From a virus (Duplodnaviria; Heunggongvirae; Uroviricota; Caudoviricetes), in the IMG/VR virus record IMGVR_UViG_2541047895_000011: 32,441 bases of DNA. The stretch is one strand, 5' to 3'. The notes under the pieces are model-generated. The model was not told the origin of the DNA. It saw nothing but the letters and a program-made list of their open reading frames with translations, and did not search any database. Both the position numbers and the translations under genes were made by a program. Position 1 is the stretch's first letter. Each line of letters starts with the position of its first letter. Of the stretch, positions 1-31,538 are shown piece by piece.

Positions 1-1011
1 TTATAACGTCACTCCGCCTTTTAGTGGATTCAGAGCGACGGCATTTTGCAGGTAGTCAGGCGCAAGGTGCGCATAGGCCATCGTCTGCTGAATGCTCGCA
101 TGTCCCAGAATCTGTTGCAGTGCGATTATATTGCCCCCGTTCATCATGAAATGGCTTGCGAATGTATGCCGCAGGATGTGGGTTGCCTGATTGGGTGGTA
201 TATCAGGTTTCACTCTGCGTAAAATCCCGCAAAATTTCTCATAATCAACTTTGAATAATTTGGCGCTTGCCTCCTCTTTAACTTTTTTCTCCAGTTCCTC
301 AGAAATCGGCACGGTTCGCTTTTTACCGTTTTTGGTTTTCAGGAAGGTAACCCTGCAATTTGTAATCTGTGCTGGTTTTAGCGTGGCAACTTCCGTCCAT
401 CTTCCTCCAGTGCTCAGACATAAAAGCGCGACAAGTAAGTCATCACCAGCCAAAACATTTAACAGTTTTTCGATTTCTGCTTTTTCCAGGAACGTCATTT
501 CAGGGTTGGCCTCCGCCAGTGGCGGCAGTCCGTGAATTGGGTGTTGCCCGGAAAATTCATCCAATTGAATTAATTTTGTGAACATGCCGGATAATCGGTA
601 CATGTCACGGTTTATCGTTGCGGCACTGATACCATCACGTAGTCGTATGGAACGATAATCCATCAAAGCCCTTTTGCTCATCCGGCTCACTGGTATATCA
701 CCTATGCCGCTGATGGTTTTGAGTAGATGATTAAACTCTTTTGTTCCATGCTCGTGGTTTTGCCCGTGATATTTCCACCAGATGTCCAGCAACTCACTCA
801 AAGTTCGGCGGTCTGCTCGCTGGCCTCCCCATTCTTTCTGACTGGCATTGGCGATTGTGTATCGCTCAAATGCTAGTGCTTCAGCTTTTCTTTCGAATTT
901 CCTGCGGATGCGTTTTCCGTCGCGACCGCGAGGTCTAATGTCCACTTCATAGCGACCATCATCGAGCTTCTTAATTGCCATAAGAAAGCCCTCCGGCGCT
1001 GTATTCACCAT
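1..1011 (-). CDS. int: Phage integrase (tyrosine recombinase), P2 Int-like
   Basis: 336-aa ORF; C-terminal region has the tyrosine-recombinase pattern (HILRHTF ... LGHASIQQTMAYAHL with the terminal Tyr); lies immediately downstream of the C repressor on the same strand, as in the P2 C-int operon. Confidence 0.9.
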   Translation of the reverse strand: MVNTAPEGFLMAIKKLDDGRYEVDIRPRGRDGKRIRRKFERKAEALAFERYTIANASQKEWGGQRADRRTLSELLDIWWKYHGQNHEHGTKEFNHLLKTISGIGDIPVSRMSKRALMDYRSIRLRDGISAATINRDMYRLSGMFTKLIQLDEFSGQHPIHGLPPLAEANPEMTFLEKAEIEKLLNVLAGDDLLVALLCLSTGGRWTEVATLKPAQITNCRVTFLKTKNGKKRTVPISEELEKKVKEEASAKLFKVDYEKFCGILRRVKPDIPPNQATHILRHTFASHFMMNGGNIIALQQILGHASIQQTMAYAHLAPDYLQNAVALNPLKGGVTL

Positions 1012-3237: not shown

Positions 3238-3509
3238 GTATTCGTATTGAAATTGGCGAACGTTATGTCGTTACCAGTGACAGCTTTCAGTTTATTCTCC
3301 ACGAGAAAAAGAGAGCTGAAAGCGGTAAAAATGCCGGTCAGGAATGGCTGGCGGTAGTTGGTTATTACCCGAAATTAAGCCAGCTCGTTTCCGGCCTGAT
3401 GCATCACGATATTCTGACCGGAAGCGCAAAATCTTTTGCTGATTTAAACGCGCAGGTTGAGCAACTCAGCAAGCGTTGTTCAGAGGCTTTTGGCTCACAT
3501 GGCCGTTAA
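3234..3509 (+). CDS. Hypothetical early protein (position of P2 orf83)
   Basis: 91-aa ORF; its stop overlaps the start of A. Confidence 0.5.
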   Translation: MSIRIEIGERYVVTSDSFQFILHEKKRAESGKNAGQEWLAVVGYYPKLSQLVSGLMHHDILTGSAKSFADLNAQVEQLSKRCSEAFGSHGR

Positions 3510-5808
3510 AGCCTCCGGGCATTTTGTCCCTCCGTCAGCATTTGCCGCAGGCACCGGTAAGACGTTTACCGGTGCTTATGCATGGAACGCGCCACGCGAG
3601 GCCGTCGGGCGCGAAAGACCCCTTACACGTGACGAGATGCGTCAGGTGCAAGGTGTTTTATCCACGATTAACCGCCTGCCTTACTTTTTGCGCTCGCTGT
3701 TTACTTCACGCTATGACTACATCCGGCGCAATAAAAGCCCGGTGCACGGGTTTTATTTCCTCACATCCACTTTTCAGCGTCGTTTATGGCCGCGCATTGA
3801 GCGTGTGAATCAGCGCCATGAAATGAACACCGACGCGTCGTTGCTGTTTCTGGCAGAGCGTGACCACTATGCGCGCCTGCCTGGAATGAATGACAAGGAG
3901 CTGAAAAAGTTTGCCGCCCGTATCTCATCGCAGCTTTTCATGATGTATGAGGAACTCTGCGATGCCTGGGTGGATGCGCATGGCGAAAAAGAATCGCTGT
4001 TTACGGATGAGGCGCAGGCTCACCTGTATGGTCATGTTGCTGGCGCTGCACGTGCTTTCAATATTTCCCCTCTCTACTGGAAAAAATACCGTAAAGGACA
4101 GATGACCACGAGGCAGGCATATTCTGCCATTGCCCGTCTGTTTAACGATGAGTGGTGGACTCATCAGCTTAAAGGCCAGCGTATGCGCTGGCATGAGGCG
4201 TTATTGATAGCTGTCGGGGAGGTCAATAAAGACCGTTCTCCTTATGCCAGTAAACATGCCATTCGTGATGTGCGTGCGCGCCGTCAGGCAAATCTGGAGT
4301 TTCTTAAATCGTGTGACCTTGAAAACAGGGAAACCGGCGAACGCATCGACCTTATCAGTAAGGTGATGGGCAGTATTTCTAATCCTGAAATTCGCCGGAT
4401 GGAGCTGATGAACACCATTGCCGGTATTGAGCGTTACGCCGCCGCAGAGGGTGATGTGGGGATGTTTATCACGCTGACCGCGCCGTCAAAGTATCACCCG
4501 ACACGTCAGGTCGGAAAAGGCGAAAGTAAAACCGTCCAGCTTAATCACGGCTGGAATGATGAGGCATTTAATCCGAAGGATGCGCAGCGTTATCTCTGCC
4601 GTATCTGGAGCCTGATGCGCACGGCATTCAAGGATAATGATTTACAGGTCTACGGTTTGCGAGTCGTCGAGCCACACCACGACGGAACGCCGCACTGGCA
4701 TATGATGCTTTTTTGTAATCCACGCCAGCGTAACCAGATTATCGAAATCATGCGTCGCTATGCGCTCAAAGATGATGGTGACGAAAGAGGAGCCGCGCGA
4801 AACCGTTTTCAGGCAAAACACCTTAACCGGGGCGGTGCTGCGGGATATATCGCGAAATACATCTCAAAAAACATCGACGGCTATGCACTGGATGGTCAGC
4901 TCGATAACGATACCGGCAGGCCGCTGAAAGACACTGCCGCGGCTGTTACCGCATGGGCGTCAACGTGGCGCATTCCGCAATTTAAAACGGTTGGCCTGCC
5001 GACAATGGGGGCTTACCGTGAACTACGCAAATTGCCTCGCGGCGTCAGCATTGCTGATGAGTTTGACGAGCGCGTCGAGGCTGCACGCGCCGCCGCAGAC
5101 AGTGGTGATTTTGCGTTGTATATCAGCGCGCAGGGTGGGGCAAATGTCCCGCGCGATTGTCAGACTGTCAGGGTCGCCCGTAGCCCGTCGGATGACGTTA
5201 ACGAGTACGAGGAAGAAGTCGAGAGAGTGGTCGGCATTTACGCGCCGCATCTCGGCGCGCGTCATATTCATATCACCAGAACGACGGACTGGCGCATTGT
5301 GCCGAAAGTTCCGGTCGTTGAGCCTTTGACTTTAAAAAGCGGCATCGCCGCGCCTCGGAGTCCTGTCAATAACTGTGGAAAGCTCACCGGTGGTGATACT
5401 TCGTCACCGGCTCCCACGCCTTCTGAACACGCCGCAGCAGTGCTTAATCTGGTAGATGACGGTGTTATTGAATGGAATGACCCGGTGGTCGTGAGGGCGC
5501 TCAGAGGCGCATTAAAATACGGCCTGAGAAGACCAAACCGTCAGCAAAGAAACGGAATACCGTTAAAACCGCATGAAATAGCACCATCGGCCAGGCTGAC
5601 CCGGTCAGAACGAATGCAAATTACCCGTATCCGTGTTGACCTTGCTCAGAACGGTATCAGGCCTCAGCGATGGGAGCTTGAGGCGCTGGCGCGTGGGGCG
5701 ACCGTAAATTATGACGGGAAACAATTTACGTATCCGGTTGCTGATGAGTGGCCGGGATTTTTACAAACAGAAATTGTTTTTGGGATTAATAAGTTATCTC
5801 TAAGCTAA
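3499..5808 (+). CDS. A: Rolling-circle replication initiator endonuclease, P2 gpA-like
   Basis: Large ORF (track 3457..5808); ATG at 3499 (MAVKASG...) overlaps the upstream stop and matches the P2 A N-terminus as I recall it; contains the tyrosine-rich motif GYIAKYISKN typical of rolling-circle initiators. Confidence 0.9.
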   Translation: MAVKASGHFVPPSAFAAGTGKTFTGAYAWNAPREAVGRERPLTRDEMRQVQGVLSTINRLPYFLRSLFTSRYDYIRRNKSPVHGFYFLTSTFQRRLWPRIERVNQRHEMNTDASLLFLAERDHYARLPGMNDKELKKFAARISSQLFMMYEELCDAWVDAHGEKESLFTDEAQAHLYGHVAGAARAFNISPLYWKKYRKGQMTTRQAYSAIARLFNDEWWTHQLKGQRMRWHEALLIAVGEVNKDRSPYASKHAIRDVRARRQANLEFLKSCDLENRETGERIDLISKVMGSISNPEIRRMELMNTIAGIERYAAAEGDVGMFITLTAPSKYHPTRQVGKGESKTVQLNHGWNDEAFNPKDAQRYLCRIWSLMRTAFKDNDLQVYGLRVVEPHHDGTPHWHMMLFCNPRQRNQIIEIMRRYALKDDGDERGAARNRFQAKHLNRGGAAGYIAKYISKNIDGYALDGQLDNDTGRPLKDTAAAVTAWASTWRIPQFKTVGLPTMGAYRELRKLPRGVSIADEFDERVEAARAAADSGDFALYISAQGGANVPRDCQTVRVARSPSDDVNEYEEEVERVVGIYAPHLGARHIHITRTTDWRIVPKVPVVEPLTLKSGIAAPRSPVNNCGKLTGGDTSSPAPTPSEHAAAVLNLVDDGVIEWNDPVVVRALRGALKYGLRRPNRQQRNGIPLKPHEIAPSARLTRSERMQITRIRVDLAQNGIRPQRWELEALARGATVNYDGKQFTYPVADEWPGFLQTEIVFGINKLSLS

Positions 5809-5930
5809 GACGCTCAAAGCAAGAGATTATTTTACTGTACGTAGCCATCTGGAATTGTGGCTGTGTTAAAACGCTCGAGATTTTTTGGATATCCAGTTAT
5901 ACTCCGCTTAGAAATCATTCGGAGACTAAG

Positions 5931-6977
5931 ATGGCGGTAAAAGTTGTTGATCTTTTTTGCGGTGCTGGCGGTTTAACGCACGGCTTACATTTGGCCGGAT
6001 TGGACGTTGTCGCAGGCATTGATTTAGAAGGTGAGTGTCGTGTTGCATACGAAAGCAATAATGATGCACTTTTTATTGAAAAAGATATATCTCTGGTGAC
6101 AAAAGATGAAATCGAAAATCTTTTTGAAGGGGCAAGTGTTAAAGTATTGGCCGGATGTGCACCTTGTCAGCCATTTTCTAAATATACTCAGGGAAAAGAT
6201 AAAAAAAATGATAAAAAGTGGCCGTTATTATATGAGTTTGAACGTTTAATAAAAGACACGAAACCAGAAATAGTTACAATGGAAAACGTTCCTGATGTGA
6301 CAAAACATTCTGTCTATGATGATTTTTATAATACCTTAATAGCATTGGGTTATTATGTTTGGGCAAATAAGATTGAATGTGTAGATTTTGAGGTTCCGCA
6401 AAACAGAGTGAGGCATGTATTACTCGCATCTAAATTTGCGCCGATTTCTCTGATGAAACCACAAACATCGGTAAAGCTGACAGTTAGGGATTGCATTGGT
6501 AATTTACCTTCGATTGAAGCGGGACAAGCAGATCCAAAAGACCCTCTCCATAAGGCGAGTAGATTGAGTGAAATTAATCTCAAACGTATTCTACATTCAA
6601 AACCGGGGGGGACATGGAGGGATTGGCCTGCTGAATTAATCGCTTCATGTCATGCCAAGAAAAGTGGGCAGGGATATGCCAGTGTTTATGGTCGTATGTC
6701 TTGGGATAAACCGAGTCCAACGATAACTACACTTTGTTATGGTTTTGGTAATGGACGTTTTGGTCATCCCGAGCAGCATCGTGCAATCTCACTTAGGGAA
6801 GCAGCATTACTTCAAACGTTTCCTGTTACATATTCATTTACCCAACCGGGCGAGCCGATCAAAATGAAAAATGTCGGGCGTATGATAGGTAATGCTGTTC
6901 CTGTAAACTTAGGTAAAGCGATTGGTCTTTCAATAGTACATCATTTGAAAGAGTTTCACCCCGCCGCTCTTAAATAA
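5931..6977 (+). CDS. DNA (cytosine-5)-methyltransferase, Dcm family
   Basis: 348 aa with motif I (DLFCGAGG), catalytic PCQ motif IV (GCAPCQPFS), ENV motif VI (MENVPDV), QNRVR motif VIII and a C-terminal GNAVPV motif; GGAG Shine-Dalgarno 6 nt upstream of the ATG; AT-rich compared with the phage backbone. Confidence 0.9.
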   Translation: MAVKVVDLFCGAGGLTHGLHLAGLDVVAGIDLEGECRVAYESNNDALFIEKDISLVTKDEIENLFEGASVKVLAGCAPCQPFSKYTQGKDKKNDKKWPLLYEFERLIKDTKPEIVTMENVPDVTKHSVYDDFYNTLIALGYYVWANKIECVDFEVPQNRVRHVLLASKFAPISLMKPQTSVKLTVRDCIGNLPSIEAGQADPKDPLHKASRLSEINLKRILHSKPGGTWRDWPAELIASCHAKKSGQGYASVYGRMSWDKPSPTITTLCYGFGNGRFGHPEQHRAISLREAALLQTFPVTYSFTQPGEPIKMKNVGRMIGNAVPVNLGKAIGLSIVHHLKEFHPAALK

Positions 6978-7675
6978 GCCTGAGTATCAAGATAAGTTTG
7001 TATATTTTCAAGGATGCAGTTGAGATAATGAAAAACTTCATCCTTCATTTCTGTTAGTGTATCAATAGATGTATCTCTGCCTTTGTTTCTAAATGATTCA
7101 GAACCATGAGCAAGGTCGTTTCTGGCCTTTTTTATTGGAAGTAAATTGCAACCATTTCGCGTTATTTCTGAATCTGTATCTGCTGAGAAGCCATATTTTT
7201 CAGCGACTTCTCTAATTTTTCTAGCATCAACATTTCCAGAAAATAACGGATTTTTATTTGATTGGATAAGTTTTTTGTGAGCGTTTAGCCACTCTTTAAA
7301 TATAACTTTTGCAATGTTCCCTTGTGAGAAATCTATTTTCCCATTTGGTGATTGTAAACTATGAAATGCTACTCTTGTAAGGTTTTCATTTACAGTGTCT
7401 GCACATAATGATTCATTAGACATTAAAACATTATGAATGTCTTCTATTGCATTGGAAATGGTTGCTTCAATGAGATTGTACAATATAATAAATGCATTAG
7501 CCTTTAAAATATGAGTCATGTCAATATCAATGGGTTGTTGTATAGGCGCATCGCTTGTATTCTCTTTATAGACTAGAGATGGTTTTTTGTTTATTAGTAA
7601 CTGAATGAATGAGAAGTATTCATTAATATCTTGCATTCTTTCTTGGAAAAGAATTTTACTTGTCATCTCCTCCAT
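6956..7675 (-). CDS. HEPN-like protein (candidate Rx4H motif, RNDLAHG), putative RNase effector
   Basis: 239-aa ORF, second gene of the leftward operon, 10 nt downstream of the DUF262 gene; near the C-terminus, KKARNDLAHGSESF fits the HEPN Rx4-6H signature; AT-rich. Domain call is by eye and not profile-verified. Confidence 0.55.
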   Translation of the reverse strand: MEEMTSKILFQERMQDINEYFSFIQLLINKKPSLVYKENTSDAPIQQPIDIDMTHILKANAFIILYNLIEATISNAIEDIHNVLMSNESLCADTVNENLTRVAFHSLQSPNGKIDFSQGNIAKVIFKEWLNAHKKLIQSNKNPLFSGNVDARKIREVAEKYGFSADTDSEITRNGCNLLPIKKARNDLAHGSESFRNKGRDTSIDTLTEMKDEVFHYLNCILENIQTYLDTQAYLRAAG

Positions 7676-7685
7676 TTACTTGGCC

Positions 7686-8831
7686 TCACTCCATATTTTC
7701 ATCTTCATTTTCATCTTCGTCGACAATATTTTCTGGAATGTCTTTCCCAAGCAACTTGTTTTTTACATATTCAATGCGTGCTTTAACTTTGGGTTTAGAG
7801 TTGCTGGCATCTGAACGTGTGTGCGTGATAAACTCTTTCGAGTTGATCCAGTCATCAATATTTTTAGGAACTAAATTGGGTTCTTCCTCTAGTGCTAATG
7901 TTGCACCGACGGCAAGAGCTTCGAAACGAATCCTAGGAACAGTGGTGGCGTTTTTCACCTTTCTGAAACCATTTGGGAAATGTGTATTAATGAATTGGCA
8001 CATTTTATGAAATTTTTCCGCCAGCATAGCTGCGTTTTCATCTGTATATTCGGCATTTTTACGTTTTAAATAGGTTGTAAGAAATTCATCAACGCTTTTT
8101 CTGAAATCAAGATATTCTTCAGTGTAGGCAAAGTAGCGTAGTGCCAATTCTGGATATTCAGAGCGACGTTTTCTTGCATCTCCCAAAGGACAGATGCTAT
8201 GAAATAGAGGATCTTCGGAAATTTCATTGATAAATGCAAGGAATGGCCCATCATGGCTACCTTGCCGTTGTTCCATTGTTGTTAGTTTTTTTCCGCCAGT
8301 ATTCAGACGGTCAAAAATTTCCCTTCTTGTCTCTTCGTCACAATGTTCTGTAAGTTCAATCATTCGAATAGTTTTTCTATCAAAACGTAGGCGACGGGGA
8401 GTACTGAAATCAGAATATTTAAAACCATTGGCTGTGACTAATTTCTGCAGGCCTTCAAGAGTTAGTTTGTTATTGGTAAATTGGTGTAGGGTTCTTATTC
8501 GTTGGCTACCGTCAACAATTTCAAGTCTACCTTCATTTTCACCTGAACCAATATCGGCAACGAATATGTAAGGTATAGGAAGATTTAAAAGCAGAGATTC
8601 AATGAAACGGGATTTTTGCTTGTTGTTCCAGATAAACTCCCTTTGGTAGTCAGGTATAAAAAGCTCTGCCTCATCTTCTTCAAGACCATTCTGAAATTTG
8701 TCCACAATAACACTTATCGGGAACTCACGTATTTCATGGTCAGTGATTTTTTGCATTTCAACTATGCTTTGATCTAAAAGCTCCTTTTCTTCTTTAGTTT
8801 TTGGGGTATGTTCTGCTTTTTTTCTCGCCAT
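7686..8831 (-). CDS. DUF262 / ParB-like (GmrSD N-terminal-type) protein with acidic C-terminal tail
   Basis: 381 aa; N-terminal region has the DUF262 hallmarks (IPDYQREFIW followed by EIVDGSQRIRTL, a DGQQR-type motif); no recognisable DUF1524/HNH module; C-terminus is DEDENEDENME; first gene of the leftward operon starting near cos. Confidence 0.75.
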   Translation of the reverse strand: MARKKAEHTPKTKEEKELLDQSIVEMQKITDHEIREFPISVIVDKFQNGLEEDEAELFIPDYQREFIWNNKQKSRFIESLLLNLPIPYIFVADIGSGENEGRLEIVDGSQRIRTLHQFTNNKLTLEGLQKLVTANGFKYSDFSTPRRLRFDRKTIRMIELTEHCDEETRREIFDRLNTGGKKLTTMEQRQGSHDGPFLAFINEISEDPLFHSICPLGDARKRRSEYPELALRYFAYTEEYLDFRKSVDEFLTTYLKRKNAEYTDENAAMLAEKFHKMCQFINTHFPNGFRKVKNATTVPRIRFEALAVGATLALEEEPNLVPKNIDDWINSKEFITHTRSDASNSKPKVKARIEYVKNKLLGKDIPENIVDEDENEDENME

Positions 8832-8970
8832 GAGCTTATTATCCTACTATGCGTGTGATTGCATTAAATTGCATGTTAAACAAAAGCATAATCTATATCA
8901 GTCAATCAGCCAGTGGCAAGGTGTTGTGATTACAATGCAACTGCATTAGAACCGACTCATGAAGCGGGCG

Positions 8971-8989
8971 GGCGAGGCGGGGAAAGCAC
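8971..8989. other. Candidate cos site (19-nt P2-type cohesive end, GGCGAGGCGGGGAAAGCAC)
   Basis: Sequence matches the P2 cohesive-end sequence as I recall it, and sits where expected, between the A-side cargo and Q. Confidence 0.6.
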
Positions 8990-9131
8990 TGCGCGCTGGC
9001 GGTGGTGCTGATTTTATTTTTTCAGCGTCTGAGCGCGTCGTGGCGGCGTTTAGTCTGCCCGTTGGGGTGTTGGTGTGTTTGCGGGATGTTTTGTGCGGTG
9101 GGGAGCGTGTGAGGGCGTGATGACAGGGTGT

Positions 9132-9153
9132 AAAAAAGCCGCCCGCAGGCGGC
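9132..9153 (-). terminator. Rho-independent terminator after Q (leftward transcript)
   Basis: GC-rich hairpin (GCCGCC-CGCA-GGCGGC, 9138..9153) immediately after the Q stop, followed on the minus strand by a run of six T (9132..9137). Confidence 0.6.
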
Positions 9154-9158
9154 GATGT

Positions 9159-10193
9159 TCAGCCGTTGTCAGTGTCCAGTGAGTAGTTTTTAAAGCGGAT
9201 GACCTCCTGACCGAGCCAGCCGTTTATCTCGCGGATCCTGTCCTGTAGCGGGATAAGCTCATTGCGGACAAAGACCTTTGCCACTTTCTCAATATCGCCC
9301 AGCGACCCGACGTTTTCCGGCTTGCCACCCATCAACTGAAAGGGGATGCGGTGCGCATCAAGCAGGTCAGCGGCGCTGGCTTTTTTGATATTAAAAAAAT
9401 CGTCCTTCGTTGCCACTTCACTGAGCGGGATAATTTTAATACCGTCGGCTTTTCCCTGTGGGGCGTAGAGAAACAGGTTTTTAAAGTTGTTGCGGCCTTT
9501 CGACTTCACCATGTTTTCGCGAAGCATTTCGATATCGTTGCGATCCTGCACGGCATCGGTGACGTACATGATGTATCCGGCATGTGCGCCATTTTCGTAA
9601 TACTTGCGGCGGAACAGCGTGGCCGACTCATTCAGCCAGGCAGAGTTAAGGGCGCTGAGATATTCCGGCAGGCCGTACAGCTCCTGATTAATATCCGGCT
9701 CCAGCAGGTGAAACACGGAGCCGGGCGCGAAGGCTGTCGGCTCGTTGAAGGACGGCACCCACCAGTAAACATCCTCCTCCACGCCACGGCGGGTATATTT
9801 TGCCGGTGAGGTTTCCAGTCTGATGACCTTACCGGTAGTGCTGTAACGCTTTTCCAGAAACGCATTACCGAACACCAGAAAGTCCAGCACAAAGCGGCTG
9901 AAATTCTGCTGTGAAAGCCACGGATGCGGGATAAATGTCGAGGCCAGAATATTGCGTTTAACGTAAATCGGCGAGCTGTGATGCACGGCAGCACGCAGGC
10001 TTTTTGCCAGACCGGTAAAGCTGACCGGCGGCTCATACCATCTGCCGTTACTGATGCACTCAACGTAATCCAGAATGTCACGGCGGTCGAGTACCGGCAC
10101 CGGCTCGCCAAAGGTGAATGCCTCCATTTTCGGGGCGCTGGCGGTCATTTTTTTTGCCGCAGGTTGCGGTGTTTTCCCTTTTTTCTTGCTCAT
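9159..10193 (-). CDS. Q: Portal protein, P2 gpQ-like
   Basis: 344 aa, identical in length to P2 Q; adjacent to cos and transcribed leftward together with P. Confidence 0.9.
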   Translation of the reverse strand: MSKKKGKTPQPAAKKMTASAPKMEAFTFGEPVPVLDRRDILDYVECISNGRWYEPPVSFTGLAKSLRAAVHHSSPIYVKRNILASTFIPHPWLSQQNFSRFVLDFLVFGNAFLEKRYSTTGKVIRLETSPAKYTRRGVEEDVYWWVPSFNEPTAFAPGSVFHLLEPDINQELYGLPEYLSALNSAWLNESATLFRRKYYENGAHAGYIMYVTDAVQDRNDIEMLRENMVKSKGRNNFKNLFLYAPQGKADGIKIIPLSEVATKDDFFNIKKASAADLLDAHRIPFQLMGGKPENVGSLGDIEKVAKVFVRNELIPLQDRIREINGWLGQEVIRFKNYSLDTDNG

Positions 10194-20831: not shown

Positions 20832-23024
20832 ATGAGCACAAAATTCAGAACCGTTATCACCACTGCCGGTGCAGCAAAGCTGGCAGCGGCAACCGCACCG
20901 GGAGGGCGGAAGGTCAACATTACCACGATGGCCGTCGGGGATGGCGGTGGTAAATTGCCTGTCCCGGATGCCGGACAGACCGGGCTTATCCACGAAGTCT
21001 GGCGACATGCGCTGAACAAAATCAGTCAGGACAAACGAAACAGTAATTATATTATCGCAGAGCTGGTTATTCCGCCGGAGGTGGGCGGTTTCTGGATGCG
21101 TGAGCTTGGCCTGTACGATGATGCGGGAACGCTAATTGCCGTGGCAAACATGGCCGAAAGTTATAAACCAGCTCTTGCCGAAGGCTCAGGGCGTTCGCAG
21201 ACCTGCCGCATGGTCATCATCGTCAGCAGTGTGGCCTCAGTGGCGTTGACTATTGACACCACAACGGTGATGGCGACGCAGGATTACGTTGATGACAAAA
21301 TTGCAGAGCACGAACAGTCACGACGTCACCCGGACGCTTCGCTGACCGCAAAAGGTTTTACTCAGTTAAGCAGCGCGACCAACAGCACGTCTGAAACACT
21401 GGCCGCAACGCCGAAAGCGGTAAAGGCCGCATATGACCTTGCTAACGGGAAATATACTGCACAGGATGCCACTACAGCGCGAAAAGGTCTTGTCCAGCTC
21501 AGTAGTGCCACCAACAGCACGTCTGAAACGCTCGCCGCAACACCAAAAGCGGTTAAGGCAGCGTATGACCTTGCTAACGGGAAATACACTGCACAGGACG
21601 CCACCACAGCGCGAAAAGGCCTTGTCCAGCTCAGTAGCGCCACCAACAGCGATTCTGAAACGCTTGCGGCAACGCCAAAGGCGGTAAAAGCAGCATATGA
21701 CCTTGCTAACGGGAAATATACCGCACAGGACGCCACCACAGCGCGAAAAGGCCTTGTCCAGCTCAGTAGCGCCACCAACAGCGATTCTGAAACGCTTGCA
21801 GCAACGCCAAAGGCGGTTAAGACAGCGTATGACCTTGCTAACGGGAAATACACTGCGCAGGATGCCACCACGGCACGGAAAGGCCTTGTCCAGCTCAGTA
21901 GCGCCACCAACAGCGATTCTGAAACGCTTGCAGCAACGCCAAAGGCGGTTAAGACAGCGTATGACCTTGCTAACGGGAAATACACTGCGCAGGATGCCAC
22001 CACGGCACGGAAAGGCCTTGTCCAGCTCAGTAGCGCCACCAACAGTGATTCTGAAACGCTGGCCGCAACACCAAAAGCAGTGAAGTCTGCCTATGACAAT
22101 GCTGAAAAACGTCTTCAGAAAGATCAGAACGGTGCGGATATTCCGGGAAAGGATACCTTCACGAAAAATATCGGTGCCTGTCGTGCTTATAGCGGCGCTT
22201 TGAGCACTGAAGCCGGAAACTGGACAACCGCTCAGTTTATTGAATGGCTGGATTCCCGTGGTGCATTTAATCATCCGTACTGGATGTGCAAATGTTCATG
22301 GTCATACGGCAATAATAAAATTATTACCGATACTGGCTGTGGAACTATTCATCTTGCAGGTTGCGTTATTGAGGTTATGGGTAATAAAGGTGCCATGACC
22401 ATCCGTGTAACAACACCAAGCACTTCCACCGGAGGCGGCACCACTAACGCTCAATTCACTTATATTAATCATGGTGATGCTTATGCCCCCGGCTGGCGAC
22501 GAGACTACAACACGAAAAACCAGCAGCCTGCATTTGCTTTAGGGCAAACAGGAAGCAGGGTTGCAAATGATAAAGCTGTTGGCTGGAACTGGAATAGCGG
22601 TGTTTATGATGCAGATATCAGCGGTGCATCGACATTAATCCTCCACTTCAATATGAATGCGGGGAGTTGCCCTGCCGTACAGTTCCGTGTGAATTATAAG
22701 AACGGCGGTATTTTTTATCGTTCAGCACGTGATGGTTATGGATTTGAGGCTGACTGGTCAGAGTTTTACACCACAACCCGCAAACCCTCTGCGGGAGATG
22801 TTGGTGCATATACCAAAGCTGAATCGGATTCTCGCTATGTACGAGATATTCGCCTGGGCACACGTGTTGTTCAGACTATGCAAAAAGGTGTGATGTATGA
22901 AAAATCAGGCCATGTAATTACAGGGCTTGGTATTGTCGGTGAAGTCGATGGTGATGACCCCGCAGTATTCAGACCAATACAAAAATACATCAATGGCACA
23001 TGGTATAACGTCGTACAGGTGTAA
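20832..23024 (+). CDS. H: Tail fibre protein, P2 gpH-like, with an internal tandem repeat array and an AT-rich C-terminal domain
   Basis: 730 aa; P2-like N-terminal part, then six in-frame 44-aa repeats, then a Cys-containing C-terminal domain of lower GC. Confidence 0.9.
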   Translation: MSTKFRTVITTAGAAKLAAATAPGGRKVNITTMAVGDGGGKLPVPDAGQTGLIHEVWRHALNKISQDKRNSNYIIAELVIPPEVGGFWMRELGLYDDAGTLIAVANMAESYKPALAEGSGRSQTCRMVIIVSSVASVALTIDTTTVMATQDYVDDKIAEHEQSRRHPDASLTAKGFTQLSSATNSTSETLAATPKAVKAAYDLANGKYTAQDATTARKGLVQLSSATNSTSETLAATPKAVKAAYDLANGKYTAQDATTARKGLVQLSSATNSDSETLAATPKAVKAAYDLANGKYTAQDATTARKGLVQLSSATNSDSETLAATPKAVKTAYDLANGKYTAQDATTARKGLVQLSSATNSDSETLAATPKAVKTAYDLANGKYTAQDATTARKGLVQLSSATNSDSETLAATPKAVKSAYDNAEKRLQKDQNGADIPGKDTFTKNIGACRAYSGALSTEAGNWTTAQFIEWLDSRGAFNHPYWMCKCSWSYGNNKIITDTGCGTIHLAGCVIEVMGNKGAMTIRVTTPSTSTGGGTTNAQFTYINHGDAYAPGWRRDYNTKNQQPAFALGQTGSRVANDKAVGWNWNSGVYDADISGASTLILHFNMNAGSCPAVQFRVNYKNGGIFYRSARDGYGFEADWSEFYTTTRKPSAGDVGAYTKAESDSRYVRDIRLGTRVVQTMQKGVMYEKSGHVITGLGIVGEVDGDDPAVFRPIQKYINGTWYNVVQV
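21352..22098. repeat. Six tandem copies of a 132-bp (44-codon) unit inside H, the phage tail-fibre repeat
   Basis: The motif ACCAACAGC recurs at 21378, 21510, 21642, 21774, 21906 and 22038, exactly 132 bp apart; units 4 and 5 appear identical; the encoded unit is GLVQLSSATNS(T/D)SETLAATPKAVK(A/T)AYDLANGKYTAQDATTARK. Confidence 0.9.
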
Positions 23025-23776: not shown

Positions 23777-24370
23777 ATGTTTACTAAGCGACGATTAAAA
23801 AATATTAACTGGGAGGCAAGTTCAGTGATTCTTGCTATGGTTCTCTTTGTTGGAAATATATTTTATACAAATCATCGTGATGATATAAGCATGGAGGCTG
23901 AGAGAGACAGTATCAGAACAATGTTTGCATATGAAATCGCTAATAACCATCGCGCTCTCACTTTTCTTGATAAAACGAGAAATATTGGCTTTGACGAAAA
24001 TTCGGAGCATTTTGTTGGCGAGCCTTTTGCCATTAATGTCGAATCATTAGGAGGGCCTCGCTTACAGATTGCATTAAACCAGACTGATAAAGTTTTTAAA
24101 GCCTACTTCAGTGAATTAAGTAAACTTGATAAAGAGGATGTTACTCTTCTTATGGACTATTACCATGAGCAAAGCATCCTGCTGGAGTGTGTAAAATCTA
24201 CGTTAGAGAAGATGAAAAGCAATAATGATATTAAAGTTGATATTGATGGTTACTTATTAGAAGAACACTTCATGAATGAGTTTAATCTTTCTAATATTTT
24301 GCTTAAACGCTATAGCCATTTGTTGTCACAACACCTCAAAAAACCTGAAACAAAAGATTTACATAATTGA
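23777..24370 (+). CDS. Hypothetical membrane-anchored protein at the P2 Z/fun cargo position
   Basis: 197-aa ORF in an AT-rich island between G and FI; N-terminal hydrophobic segment (SSVILAMVLFVGNIFY); a terminator hairpin follows downstream; no motif I recognise. Confidence 0.6.
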   Translation: MFTKRRLKNINWEASSVILAMVLFVGNIFYTNHRDDISMEAERDSIRTMFAYEIANNHRALTFLDKTRNIGFDENSEHFVGEPFAINVESLGGPRLQIALNQTDKVFKAYFSELSKLDKEDVTLLMDYYHEQSILLECVKSTLEKMKSNNDIKVDIDGYLLEEHFMNEFNLSNILLKRYSHLLSQHLKKPETKDLHN

Positions 24371-31457: not shown

Positions 31458-31538
31458 ATCCTCAATTTGCCTGCTGCTTAATGCATTGCAGATGATTTGC
31501 TTCCGTTATACTACCGTCAGTTGATAGCGGGAGTATTT

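Follow-up and report, generated by a model that had tools for sequence, protein, structure and literature searches.

What does a cytosine methylase gene do in a prophage when no conventional restriction endonuclease gene stands beside it? The question is raised by the IMG/VR virus record IMGVR_UViG_2541047895_000011, whose 32,441-nt sequence, called the window here, was analyzed at its full length. A C5-cytosine DNA methyltransferase (hereafter methylase) of 348 residues is encoded at 5931-6977 on the plus strand. Two genes on the minus strand run towards it: one for a HEPN nuclease of the MAE_28990 family (239 residues, 6956-7675) and one for a DUF262 protein, a ParB-like nucleoside triphosphatase (NTPase) of 381 residues (7686-8831). 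These three genes are proposed, with moderate confidence, to constitute a restriction-modification-like anti-phage cassette carried as lysogenic-conversion cargo, in which the methylase is the modification component.

A sequence-only reading of this locus had described the methylase as orphan-looking, and this description was not borne out by comparison with other genomes. An alignment of 22 HEPN homologues was used to scan one genome per species and the viral contigs of IMG/VR, which gave 79 and 55 loci, respectively. The three window proteins, or profiles made from them, served as queries against the open reading frames (ORFs) of these loci. A DUF262 gene was found immediately upstream of the HEPN gene in every sufficiently flanked locus, usually with an overlap of 1-4 bp, and 10 nt upstream in the window. 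All nine non-cyanobacterial genomic loci also have an adjacent gene for an orthologous C5 methylase (E <= 1e-104 against the window protein); they come from an E. coli variant, Kluyvera, Buttiauxella, V. cholerae, Thalassotalea, Cytophagales, Parabeggiatoa, Pyrinomonadaceae, and Desulfuromonadales. Among the viral-contig loci with enough flank, the methylase adjoins the pair in 51 of 51. Because DUF262, HEPN, and orthologous methylase genes are linked in these non-cyanobacterial surveys, the methylase is not regarded as an orphan; its family nearly always adjoins a candidate restriction partner.

The linkage is kept in different genomic contexts and in different gene orders. The trio was found in the P2 hotspot of E. 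coli, Klebsiella, and Citrobacter, in the Arc/Mnt/antirepressor region of a Providencia prophage, amid housekeeping genes of the V. cholerae chromosome, and in the Moraxella phages Mcat24-32. The methylase gene is convergent with the pair in most loci. It lies upstream and co-directional in others (L031, L073, L082, L118-122, L133, and L136-138), and downstream and co-directional in L218. The three proteins also co-diverge: in pairwise-identity matrices, the methylase correlates with DUF262 at r = 0.93 and with HEPN at r = 0.83, and none of 2000 permutations in a Mantel test reached the observed correlations. The trio itself was noted by Anantharaman, Makarova, Burroughs, Koonin, and Aravind in 2013 (Biol Direct 8:15, Table 1).

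The same methylase family is combined with other partners. When viral contigs were scanned with the methylase alignment, the closest 80 orthologues showed 48-72% identity to the window protein. A DUF262/HEPN neighborhood was found for 44 of them (43 with both genes, and one cut at the contig end). Most of the others lie beside a GHKL ATPase of 545-684 residues (HATPase_c_3), an SNF2 helicase of about 1,050 residues, and/or a Vsr endonuclease; these are the viral-contig loci L155-L220. The partner types are interleaved in a neighbor-joining tree of the methylase, which has no support values and is only indicative. Operons combining GHKL/paraMORC, cytosine methylase, Vsr, and helicase genes were read as restriction-modification systems by Iyer et al. 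2008 (PMC2292703). As one methylase family pairs with GHKL, SNF2, or Vsr genes, the methylase looks like a swappable modification module.

Its specificity appears to be shared along with the module. The variable, target-recognition region (residues 166-280) shows a mean identity of 0.70, versus 0.59 and 0.63 in the catalytic cores, and this conservation also holds between the partner classes. The unusual conservation of this region points to a single specificity, fixed throughout the family. A search of PDB sequences for a clue to that specificity returned DNMT1 and the cores of M.HaeIII/M.HhaI as the best matches, and was uninformative on the motif.

The protein is confirmed from its sequence as a real C5 DNA methylase, with the corresponding activity predicted. 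It matches Pfam PF00145 over residues 4-336 with E 1.8e-54 and 185.8 bits (cut-off 22), and TIGR00675 of the dcm superfamily with E 2.9e-36 and 125.8 bits (cut-off 100.65). Its RefSeq entry, WP_001533788.1, is annotated as a DNA cytosine methyltransferase. The sequence-only reading had claimed all canonical motifs; motifs I, IV, VI, VIII, IX, and X are present in the canonical order. Motif I is DLFCGAGG (residues 7-14), motif IV is GCAPCQPFS with the catalytic Cys (75-83), motif VI is ENV (118-120), motif VIII is QNRVR (157-161), motif IX is RAISLREAALLQTFP (284-298), and motif X is GNAVP (320-324). Within each motif, the core residues do not vary among 19 orthologues. Vsr genes adjoin several orthologues, which indirectly supports the prediction that 5-methylcytosine is placed at a defined motif.

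The HEPN protein matches PF18737 (HEPN_MAE_28990) with the e-value 7.6e-18, and the Pfam model RiboL-PSP-HEPN at 29.6 bits (cut-off 28.4). Its Rx4H motif, R185-N-D-L-A-H190, is encoded at 7106-7123 on the minus strand, and R185-N-x-L-A-H190 is invariant in the alignment of 22 homologues. The family is large (1,627 cluster representatives at E <= 1e-3). Its 150 best representatives are all stand-alone proteins of 158-264 residues, with no fusion to DUF262 or methylase.

The DUF262 protein matches PF03235 (GmrSD_N) with the e-value 4.7e-28. Three motifs, QREFIW, DGSQR, and FDRLN, were read from its translation, with naming following PMC12065111. In PADLOC, it matches NsnA with 4.9e-55 (model positions 41-377 of 385) and PD-T4-2_A with 9.2e-35 (model positions 55-357 of 363). 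These matches indicate a predicted ParB-like NTPase domain followed by a helical DNA-binding domain, as in NsnA, DndB, GmrSD, and SspE. The PADLOC model REase_II touches the DUF262 domain weakly (8.9e-07). No recognized restriction fold (PD-(D/E)xK, HNH, GIY-YIG, or PLD) was found in the adjacent genes, for which Pfam returned only GmrSD_N and HEPN. The first impression that no conventional restriction endonuclease is adjacent is thus correct, the neighbors being HEPN_MAE_28990 and DUF262.

Each side of the cassette has its own predicted promoter. That of the methylase lies at 5874-5903 on the plus strand, with the -35 element TCGAGA at 5875-5880, a 17-nt spacer, and the -10 element TATACT at 5898-5903. 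The Shine-Dalgarno sequence GGAGA follows at 5921-5925 (+), with GGAG six bases 5' of the methylase ATG. A consensus scan found nine promoter-like matches in the window region versus 9.9 expected from shuffles. Because a consensus match by itself is weak evidence, the promoter call rests on conservation. Six enterobacterial loci, with proteins 60-90% identical and upstream flanks that cannot be aligned, share the invariant elements GCTCGAG(A/G)TTTT, GTTATACTC, and TCGGAGACTAA(G/A)ATG. The sigma-70 promoter proposed in the sequence-only reading is therefore found at its expected elements and is conserved both in enterobacteria and across the methylase family, and the proposed Shine-Dalgarno sequence is likewise present and invariant in these six loci.

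The conservation across the family centers on TCGA. Among 127 unique upstream regions of the methylase family, TCGA is located at -60 to -51 in 52, versus 2-8 in each of the other 10-nt bins. Of 106 non-cyanobacterial upstream regions, 64 contain it; all 22 cyanobacterial upstream regions lack it. TCGA constitutes positions 1-4 of a hexamer TCGA[GT][AG] and is seen with every partner type. A -10 element matching the consensus at five or six of six positions lies exactly 17 nt 3' of the hexamer in 53 of the 64 TCGA-bearing regions. The C at the second position of the -35 element is kept across distant hosts, which suggests a constraint beyond the binding of RNA polymerase. One hypothesis is that the promoter TCGA could be the methylase's own target and mediate methylation-sensitive autoregulation; this would also predict the specificity of the methylase.

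In the window, the -35 element TCGAGA lies within the palindrome CTCGAG (5874-5879). Depletion within the prophage was sought as a possible trace of the target motif, and TCGA is not depleted (79 observed versus 76 expected). CTCGAG is not depleted either (one observed versus 2.4 expected), and its sole copy in the window is that of the methylase promoter. A lead from the BsuM system of B. subtilis, in which CTCGAG and C5 methylases are involved, was not substantiated from the literature.

The DUF262-HEPN operon is preceded by a promoter-like site at 8858-8919 on the minus strand. The consensus scan placed its -35 element TTGCCA at 8919-8914 and its -10 element TAGATT at 8895-8890. Two ATGCAAT boxes, 10 bp apart (8874-8868 and 8864-8858, minus strand), lie between the predicted -10 element and the DUF262 start. 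Pairs of ATGCA(A/C) boxes were also found in Kluyvera, Klebsiella, and other enterobacterial copies, and the pair could be a putative operator.

The 3' ends of the methylase and HEPN genes overlap by 22 bp at 6956-6977, and the ORF coordinates agree with what the sequence-only reading had noted. Among 29 convergent loci, a 4-bp overlap with interlocking stop codons was found in 16, and small gaps in a few; the overlap is 22 bp in the window and Kluyvera, and 25 bp in Buttiauxella. Because a terminator never fits between the genes, convergent transcription must give overlapping RNAs. At 7112-7129 (+), within the HEPN gene, is a weak hairpin resembling a terminator of the methylase transcript, placed exactly opposite the codons for the R-N-D-L-A-H motif. 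No terminator-like site for the opposite, HEPN-side transcript was found in the window scan. Antisense control through the overlap cannot be essential, because co-directional arrangements exist.

How the three proteins would work together can be proposed as follows. The methylase, expressed from its own promoter, would introduce 5-methylcytosine at a single, fixed short motif of the lysogen's DNA, including the prophage. The DUF262 protein and the HEPN nuclease would be co-translated from the convergent operon. The DUF262 protein would inspect DNA, and incoming DNA lacking the mark would license the HEPN nuclease. As HEPN enzymes are typically ribonucleases (RNases), the expected result is that phage or host RNA would be shut down, in place of the cleavage of DNA seen in classical systems. 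The data directly support the domain identities, the integrity of the catalytic motifs of each protein, the close linkage of the three genes both in evolution and on the DNA, and the modularity of the methylase. We infer that methylation blocks activation, that HEPN acts on such a target, and that the phenotype is anti-phage.

Two roles had been suggested for the methylase on inspection of the locus. The first, protection of self DNA from the DUF262/HEPN pair, is favored by the linkage, the three gene orders, and the co-divergence. The second, protection of the phage from type II restriction by the host, may be a side benefit and leaves the fixed linkage unexplained; it is insufficient because the linkage is also present in non-phage chromosomal loci.

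Several observations weigh against a modification role for the methylase in such a cassette. In 26 cyanobacterial loci, DUF262 and HEPN are intact and there is no methylase within 6 kb, and the methylase was apparently lost in at least four separate clades, as judged from an unsupported neighbor-joining tree. A G7 homopolymer in the methylase gene (6605-6611, +) varies in length between records. G7, found in the window and 11 distinct records, is by far the commonest allele. RefSeq annotates a methylase frameshift for the G6 allele of E. coli CP027550, and the methylase is annotated in two pieces in phage P2_4B2 (NC_049387), which has G8; DUF262 and HEPN are intact in both. Real frameshifts would mean that the pair can be tolerated when the methylase is missing. 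PD-T4-2 from E. coli ECOR65 (Vassallo et al. 2022), a two-gene DUF262 and HEPN system with validated anti-T4 activity, defends E. coli without any methylase. Moreover, the characterized DUF262 enzymes GmrSD, BrxU, and SspE respond to modified DNA (PMC10952713). Both partners are labeled "unknown function" in PHROGs, the HEPN protein has no PADLOC match even at E <= 10, and no experimental study of the trio was found in literature searches.

The cyanobacterial loci and the frameshift alleles can be described further. The neighbors of the methylase-less pairs are housekeeping genes, often clpB. Replacement of the C5 enzyme by another type of methylase was considered and rejected, the neighbors there encoding ClpB, ABC1 kinase, SpoU, CHAD, ACP, and others. 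The sole methylase remnant detected with tblastn is a C-terminal piece of about 60 residues in Trichodesmium (L075, 6670-6803), just after HEPN. In many Microcoleus species, the DUF262 gene is reduced to a 534-bp ORF, which probably reflects one inherited event. The G6 and G8 alleles may be homopolymer sequencing errors or real off-switches. G7 as a conserved phase-variation device of the family was rejected, as the G runs are 2-5 in orthologues of other genera.

One alternative is methylase-dependent restriction, in which the methylase is also a specificity subunit needed by DUF262-HEPN, as in type III or BREX-like systems. Loss of the methylase would then disable the whole system and not kill the cell. 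In line with this, frameshift alleles stand beside intact partner genes both in a lysogen (G6) and in a phage genome on deposit (G8), and conservation within the methylase peaks in the target-recognition region. The truncation of DUF262 in Microcoleus after methylase loss and the Trichodesmium remnant also resemble the decay of a disabled system. On the other side, the 26 cyanobacterial loci retain both partners intact, the Microcoleus truncation counts only once if it is a single inherited event, and the frameshifts may be sequencing errors. A complex of the methylase with DUF262 is also not directly indicated, by a fusion or otherwise, and the best 150 HEPN representatives are stand-alone. 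This possibility is given a small but appreciable probability. An extended version joins several of these elements: a specificity that contains TCGA and is fixed across the family, autoregulation through the -35 element, a methylase required in the manner of type III Mod or BREX PglX for DUF262 to recognize unmethylated sites, a HEPN RNase that is switched on, and possible on/off switching through G7 in this E. coli lineage. As a whole, this combination is considered unlikely; if true, it would link an effector that targets RNA to a reader of the methylation state of DNA.

The pair could also act as a guard or back-up comparable to PrrC-EcoprrI. DUF262-HEPN would then be an abortive-infection module that is silenced by, or monitors, the methylase or the methylation status, and that is triggered once a phage has blocked or evaded immunity based on methylation. 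Among the suicide effectors that accompany restriction-modification systems, HEPN RNases are classic examples (PMC3710099, PMC3632139), the HEPN motif is intact here, and the linkage data fit a guard as well as they fit the proposed modification role. The locus includes no restriction component to be backed up, however, the GHKL and SNF2 partners of the same methylase family resemble primary restriction modules, and methylase-free DUF262-HEPN pairs exist; a guard is considered quite improbable. Lowest in probability, and very unlikely, is that the two units function independently, the methylase benefiting the phage by protection of P2 DNA or by epigenetic regulation, and DUF262-HEPN being a separate defense similar to PD-T4-2 or type IV systems. 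The activity of PD-T4-2 without a methylase and the targeting of modified DNA by characterized DUF262 enzymes are consistent with independence, as are the separate promoters, the opposite orientation, and the frequent stacking of unrelated systems in hotspots. Yet the trio is linked across phyla, in non-phage chromosomal loci, and in several orders, with co-divergence, and the methylase family is rarely without a candidate partner. Chance co-residence in a hotspot is rejected because it cannot produce such cross-phylum linkage and co-divergence. The restriction-modification-like cassette, with the methylase as its modification component, is thus the preferred explanation of the locus.

The cassette lies in a known defense hotspot. 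The window corresponds to an E. coli prophage of the P2-like (Peduovirus) type, with the integrase gene (1-1011, minus strand) at one end, followed by the replication gene A (3457-5808, PF05840) and the portal gene Q (9159-10193, PF04860). The host gene fieF starts at 31497, 3' of the terminase, capsid, lysis, tail, and ogr genes, and cpxP lies on the far side of the integrase in the near-identical genome CP027550. The cargo segment (5809-8914) contains exactly the three genes and occupies the hotspot between gene A and cos/gene Q. It is AT-rich, with a GC content of 0.30-0.45 versus 0.52-0.60 in the backbone, and the low GC content is common to all three genes. To the right of the cargo lies the 19-nt sequence GGCGAGGCGGGGAAAGCAC at 8971-8989 (+), an exact single match with no occurrence in 100 shuffles, which we take to be the P2 cos cohesive-end sequence. 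Because the cargo directly adjoins cos, it would lie at the very right of the linear genome when packaged. The only part of the region that is common to more than 2,000 other E. coli P2-like prophages is 8915-9158. The cassette is rare, being found in seven of 5,426 complete E. coli genomes; three copies are near-identical to the window, and four are variants of about 76% identity. The A-to-Q hotspot of P2 is the site of tin, old, and many validated defense systems (PMC9519451).

Other features of the prophage were also recorded. In the P2 backbone outside 5809-8914, GATC is strongly avoided (17 observed versus 113 expected under a Markov model). CTAG is avoided there too (2 observed versus 8.9 expected), and TCGA is not avoided. 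A second P2 hotspot, between the tail-fibre assembly gene G and the sheath gene FI, includes an ORF of 197 residues at 23777-24370 (+). Its product has an N-terminal hydrophobic segment, belongs to phrog_3829 of "unknown function", and has no Pfam or NCBIfam match. The ORF was found at >=80% coverage in 201 of 5,426 E. coli genomes and is annotated as hypothetical every time; it is a candidate single-gene defense or exclusion protein. The tail-fibre gene H (20832-23024) contains a 132-bp (44-residue) unit in 5.5 tandem copies with 91% identity, at 21372-22097.

P2-type prophages are a major reservoir of anti-phage systems in E. coli, and the trio is absent from PADLOC as a system. If the proposed cassette works as described, its restriction arm would consist of an NTPase sensor and a HEPN nuclease instead of a DNA endonuclease, and its methylase would be a portable module common to GHKL- and SNF2-based systems. 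The cassette is compact (3.1 kb) and is present in deposited phages (Escherichia virus P2_4B2 and Moraxella Mcat24-32), so it could show how DUF262 proteins read modification. How DUF262 reads the modification state is a question also for Menshen, Dazbog, and PD-T4-2. The conserved TCGA-containing -35 element gives a concrete prediction of the methylation motif.

Among known defense systems, DISARM and Menshen are each suggested by a single gene of the trio. The best PADLOC match of the methylase is DrmMII of DISARM (1.9e-89), but DrmA, DrmB (DUF1998), and DrmC (PLD) are absent from the cargo, and DISARM was rejected. The DUF262 protein has the architecture of NsnA of Menshen (NsnABC), ParB-DUF262 with a C-terminal DNA-binding domain. 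In Menshen, as defined in PMC12065111, NsnB directly follows NsnA, whereas the HEPN gene follows DUF262 here. Neither the ABC-ATPase NsnB nor the inPIN-nuclease NsnC is present, and there is no ATPase ORF in 5809-9158; thus, Menshen was also rejected. The authors of the Menshen study speculate that DUF262 may target non-modified genomes (PMC12065111).

PD-T4-2, a distant relative only, and the GmrSD group also have the DUF262 domain. The window DUF262 protein matches PD-T4-2_A, but it matches NsnA better. Both ORFs of PD-T4-2 lie within 1.54 kb without a methylase, and the window cassette has one. Membership in PD-T4-2 was rejected, as the window HEPN protein is without a PADLOC match and PD-T4-2 is much shorter. 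By domain assignment, the window HEPN and PD-T4-2_B are predicted to belong to the same superfamily and to different families, RiboL-PSP-HEPN being the one attributed to PD-T4-2. With GmrSD, BrxU, and SspE, the window protein shares the N-terminal DUF262 NTPase domain with the QR, DGxQR, and FxxxN motifs. No match to the DUF1524 His-Me nuclease was found in either the DUF262 or the HEPN protein, and a GmrSD-type type IV system was rejected. The linked methylase argues for a polarity opposite to that of GmrSD, BrxU, and SspE.

The modification side resembles two other groups. As in classical type II systems with convergent R and M genes, the C5 methylase of the locus is a separate protein whose gene has a promoter of its own, and the partner operon runs towards this gene so that the 3' ends abut or overlap. 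It differs in that there is no endonuclease fold, the candidate effector being a HEPN protein of the RNase type with an NTPase sensor, and in that the specificity appears to be fixed across the family, not diversified as in classical type II systems. The MORC/paraMORC GHKL operons (Iyer, Abhiman, Aravind 2008) include the same methylase family at 48-60% identity, with the variable region conserved; their restriction side is a GHKL ATPase or an SNF2 helicase, not DUF262 and HEPN.

The closest counterpart is the group of MAE_28990 HEPN - ParB(DUF262) - methylase operons reported in 2013. All three components are shared, and the locus is a member of this group. The 2013 paper gave the operons one table line and did not propose a mechanism. 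The present analysis adds the location in the P2 hotspot, the co-divergence of the three proteins, the exchange of partners within the methylase family, the conservation of its promoter, and the cyanobacterial derivatives that lack a methylase.

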